From assembly GCF_036507355.1 (NCBI RefSeq), contig NZ_AP027884.1: 4,112 bases of DNA; one strand, 5' to 3'. The position numbers and the translations under genes are program-made. Positions within the stretch are counted from its first letter, which is position 1. Each line of letters opens with the position of its first letter. Origin of the DNA: Escherichia coli. GTDB taxonomy: Bacteria > Pseudomonadota > Gammaproteobacteria > Enterobacterales > Enterobacteriaceae. This document shows positions 2,063-4,112 of the stretch, piece after piece. The notes beneath the pieces are model-generated. The model was not told where the DNA came from. It made no database searches and saw only the letters and a list, made by a program, of their open reading frames with translations.

Positions 2063-2130
2063 GTAGCATATTGAGCCCATATACACTCCGCTAGCGCAAC
2101 GTGACTGGTTCAGGGCTGCGCCCCGAAACC
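2063..2130. other. ColE1/pMB1-type bom/oriT-like (nic region) sequence
   Basis: catatacactccgctagcgcaacgtgactggttcagggctgcgccccga parallels the pBR322 bom region ccagtatacactccgctatcgctacgtgactgggtcatggctgcgccccga, which lies between ori and rop in pMB1 derivatives. Confidence 0.6.
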
Positions 2131-2697: not shown

Positions 2698-3066
2698 ATG
2701 GCGAATTTTAACCCTGGTCCAAGAACAGCCATTGCAGCTGTCAGGGATTCCAAGAACGATATAGAAACCTGGAAGAAAAATGGTATCCGTAGGGAAGAGA
2801 TTGTGACTGTACTGAATAAACGTTACGGCCTGAATATCTCACTGGTTGCGTTTGATAAGGCTCTTTACAGATTGAGAAAAAGTACAGATGAACCGTCTCT
2901 TGCTGATGTGGATTCTGTGTCTGCTGCAGAAACGAATTTCTCTGAAGCCAGTGGGCCTGAAAATGGTTTTTTTCTGTCCGGGAATGACTTCATGCGAGCA
3001 GAAGAAGAATCTCAAAGAATGGTTGAGTCATTCAGAGATAGCCTTGGCAGGAAGAAAGGATTCTGA
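2698..3066 (+). CDS. Hypothetical protein, 122 aa from ATG 2698 (ORF track extends to a TTG at 2656); basic N-terminal half, acidic C-terminal tail; possible DNA-binding protein
   Basis: Open frame of 120+ codons directly downstream of the phased repeats; N-terminal segment NGIRREEIVTVLNKRYGLNISLVAFDKALYRLRK is HTH-like by eye; no family recognised with confidence. Confidence 0.5.
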   Translation: MANFNPGPRTAIAAVRDSKNDIETWKKNGIRREEIVTVLNKRYGLNISLVAFDKALYRLRKSTDEPSLADVDSVSAAETNFSEASGPENGFFLSGNDFMRAEEESQRMVESFRDSLGRKKGF

Positions 3067-3272
3067 TTTTGAATTCTAAGTAGTGAAATAGTGGATCCTC
3101 TACTCGAAATTGTCGGATACCTGCAATTACCTACCGTGCCTTACGGCTTGGTCAATGCCTCACGGCCACGCAATAAATTGCGTCCCCGTTCACCGTTTTC
3201 GGATAAGAAGAACATCGGAAACAGGACTTACCCCGGCTGAATGGCGTGAATTTCCGCGCTATGCACTTGCGC

Positions 3273-3284
3273 GCATACTCATGC
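3273..3284. promoter_or_regulatory. Candidate ArgR-box-like palindrome (GCAT-actc-ATGC) in the Xer accessory region
   Basis: Palindrome centred about 109 bp upstream of the XerC arm, where cer-type sites carry an ArgR site; sequence only loosely resembles the ARG box consensus. Confidence 0.3.
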
Positions 3285-3386
3285 ATGCCGTAAAAACAGA
3301 GCCTGCGCGTTTCTGGCGGGTTTTCGGGTGGTTTGTTGCCTGTTTTACCGGTTTCCCGTCAGAAACGCCCTCAGCGCCTCTCAGGC

Positions 3387-3414
3387 GGTGCACGCAACGG
3401 ATGTTATGGTAAAT
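3387..3414 (+). other. Xer site-specific recombination site (cer/psi-like multimer resolution site): XerC arm GGTGCACGCAA, 6-bp central CGGATG, XerD arm TTATGGTAAAT
   Basis: XerD arm is identical to the cer XerD arm; XerC arm differs from psi (GGTGCGCGCAA) at one position; 11+6+11 layout. About 200 bp of potential accessory sequence lies upstream. Confidence 0.6.
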
Positions 3415-3432
3415 CCAGCTGATTGGCAGGTA

Positions 3433-3458
3433 CAAAAAAGCCCCGCAGGGCTTTTTTG
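3433..3458. terminator. Bidirectional rho-independent terminator (AAAAAA-GCCC-cgca-GGGC-TTTTTT)
   Basis: Stem flanked by an A-run upstream and a T-run downstream, between the Xer site and the IS1 right end. Confidence 0.6.
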
Positions 3459-3503
3459 CTATGAGTTAGCCATATTTTCGTGCGAATTTTTCATCGGAAT
3501 CGC

Positions 3504-3526
3504 GGTGATGACTCCAACTTACTGAT
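3504..3526. repeat. IS1 terminal inverted repeat (IRR)
   Basis: GGTGATGACTCCAACTTACTGAT, the canonical IS1 terminus. Confidence 0.85.
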
Positions 3527-3914
3527 AGTGTTTTATGTTCAGATAATGCCCGATGACTTTGTCATGCAGCTCCACCGATTTTGAAAACGACAGTGACTTC
3601 CGTCCCAGCCTTGCCAGATGTTGCCTCAGATTCAGGTTATGCCGCTCAATGCGCTGCGTATATCGCTTGCTGATAACGTGCAGTTCTCCCTTCAGGCGTG
3701 ATTCATAAAGCGGCCAGCCATCCGTCATCCATACCACGACCTCAAAGTCCGACAGCAGGCTCAGAAGACGCTCCAGTGTGGCCAGAGTGCGTTCACCGAA
3801 TACGTGCGCCACAACCGTCCTCCGAATCCTGTCATACGCGTAAAACAACCAGCGCTGGCGTGATTTAGCGCCGACGTAACCCCGCTGTTCGTCCATTTCA
3901 GCGCAGACAATCAC
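3519..3914 (-). CDS. insB: IS1 InsB (shown from first in-frame ATG; in IS1 the transposase is the InsAB' fusion made by -1 frameshift at the A6C motif, here complement of about 3959..3967)
   Basis: ORF-track protein [28 protein letters not shown]...HYLNIKHYQ matches IS1 InsB; the TTAAAAAAC slippery motif is present on the minus strand just upstream. Confidence 0.9.
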
Positions 3915-3940
3915 ATCACCGCCCGGTTGTATGCGCTAGG

Positions 3941-4112
3941 TTACCGACTGCGGCCTGAGTTTTTTAAGTGACGTAAAACCGTGTTGAGGCCAACGCCCAT
4001 AATGCGTGCACTGGCGCGACATCCGACGCCATTCATGGCCATATCAATGATTTTCTGGTGCGTACCGGGCTGAGAGGCGGTGTAAGTGAACTGTAGTTGC
4101 CATGTTTTACGG
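3941..4112 (-). CDS. insA: IS1 InsA, 3' portion (stop codon = complement of 3941..3943)
   Basis: The frame continues from the window start; 34 codons + 1 junction codon + 57 codons gives 91 aa plus stop, the InsA length. C-terminal sequence ...[16 protein letters not shown] is followed by TAA. Confidence 0.85.

Follow-up and report, generated by a model that had tools for sequence, protein, structure and literature searches.

The window, that is, the whole stretch of 4,112 bp that was analyzed here, is a complete circular ColE1-type plasmid of Escherichia coli. Without its IS1 copy, the window is 100% identical to p713Rt_4 (NZ_CP080073.1), a plasmid of the human faecal E. coli strain 19SZHZ713Rt, and the IS1 junctions of two sister plasmids, pCE35-5 and ES4 plasmid2, are the same as those of the window. 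The features of the plasmid are listed in Table 1. RNAI served as the landmark for the location of the oriT (bom) block with respect to the replication origin, and when placed from the RNAI position, the RNA/DNA switch should be near position 1875. The oriT block is followed by a short open reading frame for 49 amino acids (ORF49), a StbA-like gene, a cer-like block, and IS1, and the Wzz/GNVR-like gene is located on the other side of the origin.

Table 1. Features of the 4,112-bp window and oligonucleotide pairs for the nick region. A slash outside parentheses marks the nick.
Feature	Position	Strand	Basis or remark
Short AT-rich Wzz/GNVR-like gene	370-1038	minus	Pfam
RNAI, ColE1-type replicon (landmark for oriT versus ori)	1324-1425	minus	Rfam RF00106, 101.6 bits
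oriT (bom) block	2073-2144	minus (nicked strand)	homology
Nick core	2073-2085	minus	window 5'-GTGTATATGGG/CTC-3' versus canonical 5'-GTGTATACTGG/CTT-3'
Conserved segment CTCCGCTAGCGC(A/T)ACG, between nick core and hairpin	2086-2101	minus	contains the palindrome CGCTAGCG
GC-rich imperfect hairpin GGTTCAGGGC-TGC-GCCCCGAAACC	2107-2130	minus	folding, conservation
Spacer beyond the scar	2145-2164	none	unrelated to mob+ plasmids; conserved in all mob-less family members
ORF49, 49 aa	2165-2314	plus	MazE-tail match
122-aa ORF, StbA-like	2698-3066	plus	NCBIfam, sub-threshold
cer-like block	3153-3414		similarity to relatives
IS1, 768 bp, spanning the circular junction	3504-4112 and 1-159	minus	sequence comparison
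Nick-region oligonucleotide pair, short form			GTGTATATGGGCTCAAT and GTGTATACTGGCTTAAC
Nick-region oligonucleotide pair, 5' to 3'			5'-GCGGAGTGTATATGGGCTCAATATGC and 5'-GCGGAGTGTATACTGGCTTAACTATG

The minus strand of positions 2072 to 2131 was compared with the 60-mer published as the “ColE1 type” oriT of p61P-1m, a plasmid of the same backbone family (gggtttcggggcgcagccctgaaccagtcatgtagcgctagcggagtgtatactggctta; PMC11213556), and 55 of the 60 positions were identical. As a control, the window was shuffled 200 times and the best match on either strand was scored against the 60-mer. The mean best match of the shuffled sequences was 28/60 with a maximum of 31/60, and a chance resemblance to an oriT was rejected on this basis. 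Positions 2073 to 2130 were also identical to ColE1 itself, a 6,647-bp cea/imm/rop/mob plasmid (L002 in the survey described below), in 52 of 58 cases. Homology to ColE1 and to the mob+ plasmid pKKo003_3 (L004) was collinear from the ori region up to positions 2142 to 2144, where it ended; in the BLAST comparison, ColE1 positions 3138 to 4071 were collinear with 1276 to 2142 of the window. The distance from the replication origin downstream to the nick should thus be about 200 bp, as in ColE1 and pBR322. A sequence-only reading of this DNA had claimed a bom-like block at the place expected relative to ori, and both the presence of the block and its location are borne out directly by these alignments, with RNAI as the reference point. 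The conserved block comprises positions 2073 to 2144 and reaches slightly past 2130, where that reading had ended it. A 201-bp query around the site matched 4,684 plasmid records, 4,296 of them typed as mobilizable, and 30 surveyed loci with the same oriT family possessed MbeC and MbeA immediately downstream. On the level of sequence comparison, the block is confirmed as a genuine homologue of the ColE1/MOBP5(HEN)-type oriT (bom).

The ColE1 nick is reportedly located at CTGG/CTTA, where Varsaki et al. are said to have found it in 2003. In keeping with this, the published 60-mer ends with ...gtatactggctta, and the nick of the window should be on the minus strand between positions 2076 and 2075. 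The nic site of pBR322 is near position 2254. The hairpin is located 5' of the nick on the nicked strand, and it was the centroid structure in the window, in ColE1, and in pKKo003_3 when the nicked strand was folded as DNA. Its z-scores between -0.06 and -1.6 were not significant, and thermodynamics alone give no support for the structure. One base pair of the hairpin covaried, being T2109-A2128 in the window and most of its relatives and G-C in ColE1/pMB1-type sequences. A repeat search with 6-nt seeds yielded no inverted repeats in the region from 2030 to 2170, the hairpin being too short and too imperfect for this method. The conserved segment between the nick core and the hairpin is a possible candidate for a contact region of the accessory protein MbeC.

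Evaluation of the site needs to consider the sequence of the nick core, which is TATGGG/CTCA in the window compared to the canonical TACTGG/CTTA. The canonical core 5'-(G)TATACTGG/CTTA-3' was not found: the window contains GTATATGGG/CTCA where the canonical sequence is GTATACTGG/CTTA. Counted from the nick on the minus strand, the window differs at -4 (2079, C>T), -3 (2078, T>G), and +3 (2073, T>C). The canonical CCAGTATAC would be restored by two plus-strand changes, C>A at 2078 and A>G at 2079, and two forms of an oligonucleotide pair for the nick region are included in Table 1. Outside of the nick core, 53 of 55 positions agreed with the published oriT and the hairpin was intact. The statement that the block closely resembles bom is consequently true of the overall identity of 55/60 but not of the nick core, where three of the five differences (2073, 2078, and 2079) are located. 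The sequence-only reading itself had named a poor base-by-base match at the nic core as the result that would speak against it, and this comparison went partly in that direction, with the canonical core absent and the remainder of the block matching.

A survey with one genome per species contained 62 loci, each sorted according to what adjoins the site downstream. The canonical AGCCAGTATACAC was present in 28 of the 30 relaxase-linked loci, ColE1 and pKKo003_3 counted, and the two exceptions were a locus with a truncated relaxase (L019) and one with a single change (L025). Position -3 was invariant and position -4 nearly invariant in these relaxase-linked oriTs (28/30). Among the mob-less lineages, 8 with a canonical core stood against 5 with variants, which exhibited different nick-proximal changes. 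These were the lineage of the window, L005, L007, L048, and L013, in which the nick half was gone altogether. Fisher's exact test of canonical core versus relaxase linkage resulted in p=0.019 with the lineages collapsed and p=0.06 for the unbiased genome scan alone, both for loci that are few and phylogenetically related. The exact 30-mer of the variant occurred in 8 of 72,556 plasmids. All five distinct variant carriers that were examined, the window/p713Rt_4, pCE35-5, ES4 plasmid2, L080, and L081, were without MbeA and MbeC, and a one-step intermediate, CCCGTATAC, was found in the mob-less L027 and L082.

Within the mob-less family, the mean pairwise divergence was 0.168 for positions 2066 to 2085, 0.060 for 2086 to 2101, and 0.025 for the hairpin, the last value reflecting in part an ascertainment effect since the scan pattern lay within the hairpin. 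The synonymous divergence of ORF49, 0.111, was used as the local neutral yardstick. The nick core in the mob-less family diverges at or above the local neutral rate, and from these sequences, it appears to behave as unconstrained after the loss of the relaxase. An excess conservation of the oriT block was not found in this family, with 93% compared to 95% in the linked mazE' module, which gives no sign of selection on oriT. As a separate observation, the mean pairwise identity in the mob-less family was about 93% from 2073 rightwards and about 65% for positions 1991 to 2072, which are on the ori side. This step at the nick could be the result of a fast-evolving spacer or the record of a recombination at oriT.

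Mobilization genes were directly searched for and not found. Comparison of MbeA (516 aa), MbeB, MbeC, and MbeD from pKKo003_3 with the doubled (circularized) window by tblastn gave a best E value of 0.13, DNA homology to the mob region of the mob+ plasmid was absent past position 2144, and the ORFs of the window contained no relaxase or RHH accessory domain of Pfam or NCBIfam. Pfam assigned only GNVR/Wzz and the IS1 transposase to ORFs of 40 to 222 aa, and the NCBIfam matches in the window were to a MazE tail, a StbA-like protein, and a WzzB-like protein. The largest ORF outside the IS element encodes 222 aa. With tblastn, DNA homology, and Pfam all empty, the window does lack an MbeA-like relaxase ORF, as had been claimed from the sequence alone. 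The adjacent mobC-mobA operon, which is the usual context of such an oriT, is absent in the window, and this makes the site an orphan.

In the 30 relaxase-linked loci of the survey, mobC starts about 120 bp beyond the hairpin and is followed by mobA. ORF49 occupies the place where mobC would begin, after a 20-bp spacer. Its residues 18 to 48 match only the C-terminal, MazF-binding tail of MazE, covering chain residues 49 to 78 of 80 in PDB entry 7d2n (E=0.002), residues 53 to 81 in MazE 1mvf/1ub4, and positions 53 to 81 of 82 in the MazE model of NCBIfam. ORF49 has no room for an AbrB-type N-terminal DNA-binding domain, and no mazF is located downstream. Because ORF49 represents the MazE tail only and abuts the end of the homology to mob+ plasmids, the junction at about 2144 is a scar, at which oriT was fused to a 5'-truncated mazE. 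ORF49 was intact in 16 of 16 family members with a pN/pS of 0.34. Judging from its sequence, it may be a maintained small gene, for instance, a decoy for a chromosomal MazF-type toxin, rather than debris. Two palindromes built on GTAATAC/GTATTAC, GTAATACGCCGGTATTAC (2339 to 2356) and TGTAATACGTTGCGTATTACA (2393 to 2413), were seen 55 bp apart; they are operator-like and located where mazF would be expected.

The sequence-only reading had connected the loss of the mob region with a deletion associated with IS1, and this part had to be abandoned. The oriT breakpoint at 2144 and the nearest IS1 end at 3504 are 1,360 bp apart, and the truncated mazE, the StbA-like gene, and cer are located between them. 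An identical oriT/mazE' junction was present in IS1-free and mob-less relatives from E. coli (L005), Salmonella (L006), and Citrobacter (L003), the same junction in contigs from Serratia, Pseudocitrobacter, and Enterobacter (L027, L045, L059, and L066) and in plasmids from E. coli and Klebsiella (L008 and L080 to L082). In the mob-less relatives, the common junction reads ...CCCGAAACCC(T/G)CTAACAACCTCTCAGCTACTGGATATCACCCCATGCCA. A contig binned to a Bacillota MAG (L048) was mob-less with a slightly diverged junction. None of these junction-sharing plasmids and contigs, L048 included, contained MbeA or MbeC. Since IS1-free relatives with the same junction are equally mob-less, the loss of mob long predates IS1 and is common to the whole plasmid family.

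An adjacent deletion mediated by IS1, which took the mob region and thereby orphaned the oriT, is extremely improbable in view of these relatives. IS1 is indeed not flanked by a 9-bp target duplication (flanks cggaatcgc at 3495 to 3503 and cgcgaggtg at 160 to 168) and sits at the junction of two modules. However, the endpoint of the deletion is not at an IS1 terminus, the rearrangement at IS1 is separated from the oriT breakpoint by cer, many IS1-free plasmids of several genera have exactly the same oriT/mazE' junction, and, contrary to the expectation for an IS1 deletion, the IS1-free close relatives are without the deleted segment. Moreover, both IS1 flanks are module boundaries in IS1-free plasmids, too, the left one ending at the same base in L079 and the right one in L005, and the cer-side junction of pYLPD4c (L078) is identical to that of the window. 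With the joined IS1 flanks as the query, no plasmid with both flanks contiguous was found. The missing target duplication and the module junction indicate that IS1 took part in some rearrangement, which was one of the cargo region and not of mob.

The other plasmid records of the p713Rt_4 host (GCF_023516075.1) included no MOBP5 or conjugative plasmid; these 3 records were a 16.7-kb IncX1 remnant without a T4SS, a 13.9-kb tet(X4) plasmid, and a 563-bp fragment. In JX21CE35, the host of a sister plasmid, the ColE1-like pCE35-4 contained only a 93-aa relaxase fragment and pCE35-3 was without a T4SS. Among the co-resident plasmids examined, which were the three records of the first host and pCE35-3 and pCE35-4 of the second, there was no ColE1-type helper, and a co-residence with a relaxase donor and a conjugative plasmid was not found. 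p713Rt_4 was typed “mobilizable” with no relaxase listed (MOB-suite via PLSDB). This call is probably based on the oriT, and standard pipelines would then already see the site. Action of bom in cis with mob proteins in trans has been established for ColE1 derivatives, according to the citation of Finnegan and Sherratt 1982 in PMC9282650. For any conjugative use, the window plasmid would depend on two helpers, one that provides MbeA/MbeC-type proteins in trans and one that is conjugative. That the plasmid would be mobilizable only with Mob proteins supplied in trans is consistent with the missing relaxase and with the trans supply established for pBR322/ColE1 derivatives, and this claim was retained.

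To explain these data, the region from 2073 to 2144 is likely a genuine orphan ColE1/MOBP5(HEN) oriT that was inherited vertically in a widespread relaxase-less plasmid family, with a loss of mob before the arrival of IS1 and a nick core that has drifted. In an ancestor of the family, the mobC-mobA/B/D operon, whose usual start is about 120 bp past the hairpin of oriT, would have been removed by an event that fused oriT at about 2144 to the 5'-truncated mazE, long before the entry of IS1. If the site works, it should do so only with a relaxase in trans. MbeC and MbeA would come from a MOBP5 plasmid in the same cell, and the cut by MbeA would be made on the minus strand between 2076 and 2075, with MbeA remaining bound to the 5' end. 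Export of the strand would depend on a third, conjugative plasmid with its T4SS and coupling protein, and the ori side would enter first and the hairpin/mazE' side last. Because the substitutions concern -3 and -4, positions that are almost invariant where a relaxase is linked, the site may on balance be weakened or inactive, full proficiency being the lesser but still sizeable chance.

Alternatively, the oriT may be a fully functional “hitcher,” an efficient substrate for an MbeA-type relaxase in trans that is routinely mobilized with a MOBP5 and a conjugative plasmid, which is in line with the sequence-only reading. The nick-core substitutions would be neutral or adaptive in this case. The high overall identity (55/60) and the intact hairpin agree with such a function, as do the established in-trans mobilization of bom-only ColE1 derivatives (PMC9282650), the abundance of ColE1-like pOriT plasmids that co-occur with other plasmids (PMC10123127), and the maintenance of the adjoining module as judged from ORF49 (16/16 intact, pN/pS 0.34). 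Moreover, the variant lineage exists in E. coli and Klebsiella with at least 4 cargo sets (Wzz-like, WbaP, BstXI R-M, and none). Occurrence in two genera with different cargo indicates that the variant spread after the substitutions had arisen and could reflect continuing mobilization, which argues that variant plasmids still move somehow and keeps the functional interpretation alive. On the other hand, -3 and -4 are invariant or nearly so in the relaxase-linked oriTs (28/30) and no examined variant carrier has a relaxase, the nick core in the mob-less family diverges at or above the neutral yardstick, and the co-resident plasmids examined in two hosts included no MOBP5 helper. A fully functional oriT is possible but rather doubtful on this evidence.

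The block may also have been kept for a function in cis that has nothing to do with transfer, for instance, in lagging-strand priming, as a primosome assembly signal, or as a structural or terminator element, and the nick would then be irrelevant. ColE1-type replicons contain priming signals in the general area downstream of ori, and the hairpin diverged less than the nick core in the mob-less family (0.025 versus 0.168), both of which would fit. However, the hairpin is thermodynamically unexceptional, with z-scores as given above, and its conservation is inflated by the search pattern. Conservation is at about the same level (93 to 95%) throughout the downstream module, so that linkage explains that of the hairpin, and it is specifically the block that relaxase-carrying plasmids have in common with the window. 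A non-transfer function in cis is, in sum, quite improbable. It is also improbable that oriT, the mazE-tail ORF, and the StbA-like unit are together a selected “hitcher” module, for which the change from CTGG to TGGG would be a shift in specificity to another relaxase subgroup and the drop in homology at the nick (93% to the right, 65% to the left) the result of a relaxase-catalysed oriT-oriT recombination in trans. If this were true, the module would have been shuffled onto different ColE1-type origins.

The orphan oriT with a drifted nick core, which is the preferred explanation, can be compared with known systems. It shares with the bom of ColE1/pMB1 (pBR322) the same block, its orientation, its distance downstream of the RNAII/RNAI origin, and the GC-rich hairpin, in which one pair covaries. 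Like pBR322, the plasmid has no mob genes of its own, and these would have to be supplied in trans. Unlike in ColE1/pMB1, the nick core is TATGGG/CTCA and not TACTGG/CTTA, and beyond the hairpin, the window contains a truncated mazE and neither rop, as in ColE1/pMB1, nor mobC. The loss of mob was a laboratory construction in pBR322 but a natural event in a shared ancestor in case of the window plasmid.

ColE1-like “pOriT” plasmids, which are relaxase-less and contain an oriT, have been described and, in E. coli, quantified by Ares-Arroyo, Coluzzi, and Rocha (NAR 2023; PMC10123127), who interpret them as descendants of mobilizable plasmids that lost the relaxase and as dependent on both pMOB and pCONJ helpers. 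The window plasmid is likewise small, of the ColRNAI type, and without a relaxase, and it carries a ColE1-like oriT. That study dealt with the co-occurrence of helpers at the population level, whereas the sequenced host of the identical plasmid is without a MOBP5 or conjugative plasmid among its plasmid records and the nick core is mutated. Relaxase genes had been noted earlier to be missing from a substantial share of ColE1 replicons (PMC5864857), and Branger et al. 2019 (PMC6807383) reported relaxase-negative ColE1-type families (RelN_RNA), including the p9123/pCERC1 family, of which every plasmid “carried a MazE TA system.” This p9123/pCERC1-type backbone has the same ori, oriT, truncated mazE (ORF49), and cer module as the window; L003, a plasmid of the pCERC1 type with sul2-strA-dfrA14-strB, shares positions 1276 to 2497 and 3153 to 3415. 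The cargo of the window is the short Wzz/GNVR-like gene, the StbA-like gene, and IS1, and not resistance genes. L003 and p61P-1m possess the canonical nick core, unlike the window, and the putative ColE1-type oriT of this backbone is already in print (PMC11213556).

ColE1-type replicons that contribute only a cis site, in some cases together with an accessory protein, and borrow the relaxase are also known from pSe-Kan/pKPN2 (F-type oriT) and from the NTP16/pCERC7 group (nikA plus an R64-type oriT; PMC9282650). In these plasmids, the relaxase comes from the conjugative plasmid itself, which is the one helper, whereas a ColE1-type oriT requires two. The finding is an ordinary instance of an already known and described class. 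Since orphan oriTs seem to undergo drift in the nick core after loss of the cognate relaxase, a prediction as “mobilizable” from oriT homology alone may overstate mobility, and a check of the nick core could refine such calls. Blaming a gene loss on the nearest IS element can mislead, and IS-free relatives settle the matter.

Several additional observations were made in the survey and on the cargo. Contigs with ColE1-type oriT/mob sequences were present in assemblies labelled Streptomyces, Novosphingobium, Pseudomonas, Hymenobacter, Bacillota and Paceibacterota MAGs, and others (L012, L020, L038, L048, L052, L067, and others). Such contigs are most likely contaminating enterobacterial plasmids, vector sequences, or mis-binned contigs. 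L038 (Rhodococcus) and L051 (Lachnospiraceae) were rejected as chance matches of the pattern without an oriT inside.

The 222-aa product of the Wzz/GNVR-like gene matched the Pfam GNVR model with E=4e-9, with a weak Wzz N terminus, and is far shorter than the usual O-antigen chain-length regulators of about 325 aa. Relatives with this backbone carry other surface-polysaccharide genes, for a glycosyltransferase, an LPS biosynthesis protein, and WbaP. Together, these genes suggest that the plasmids form a family of small replicons for the modification of surface polysaccharides.

In its first 60 residues, the product of the 122-aa ORF is similar to StbA, a plasmid stabilization protein (NCBIfam StbA_2, E=1.7e-9, 38 bits at a cut-off of 100 bits). 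This 122/136-aa ORF was also considered as a hidden transfer protein, which was rejected because it contains only the StbA-like N-terminal domain and its size is far below that of a relaxase. Just 5' of it, a direct repeat of 41 nt occurs twice, at 2606 to 2646 and at 2658 to 2698, 52 bp apart, and the repeats contain AGACA(A/T)(A/T)TGTA(A/G)GACAT motifs. From their sequence and location, they could be binding sites of the StbA-like protein.

In a record that is nearly identical to the window, the IS1 transposase is annotated by RefSeq as frameshifted with an internal stop. The cer-like block is 91 to 95% identical in many relatives and ends exactly at a cer-like XerC/XerD core (3387 to 3414), GGTGCACGCAA-CGGATG-TTATGGTAAAT. 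The central region of this core is 6 bp long, compared to 8 bp in cer of ColE1.
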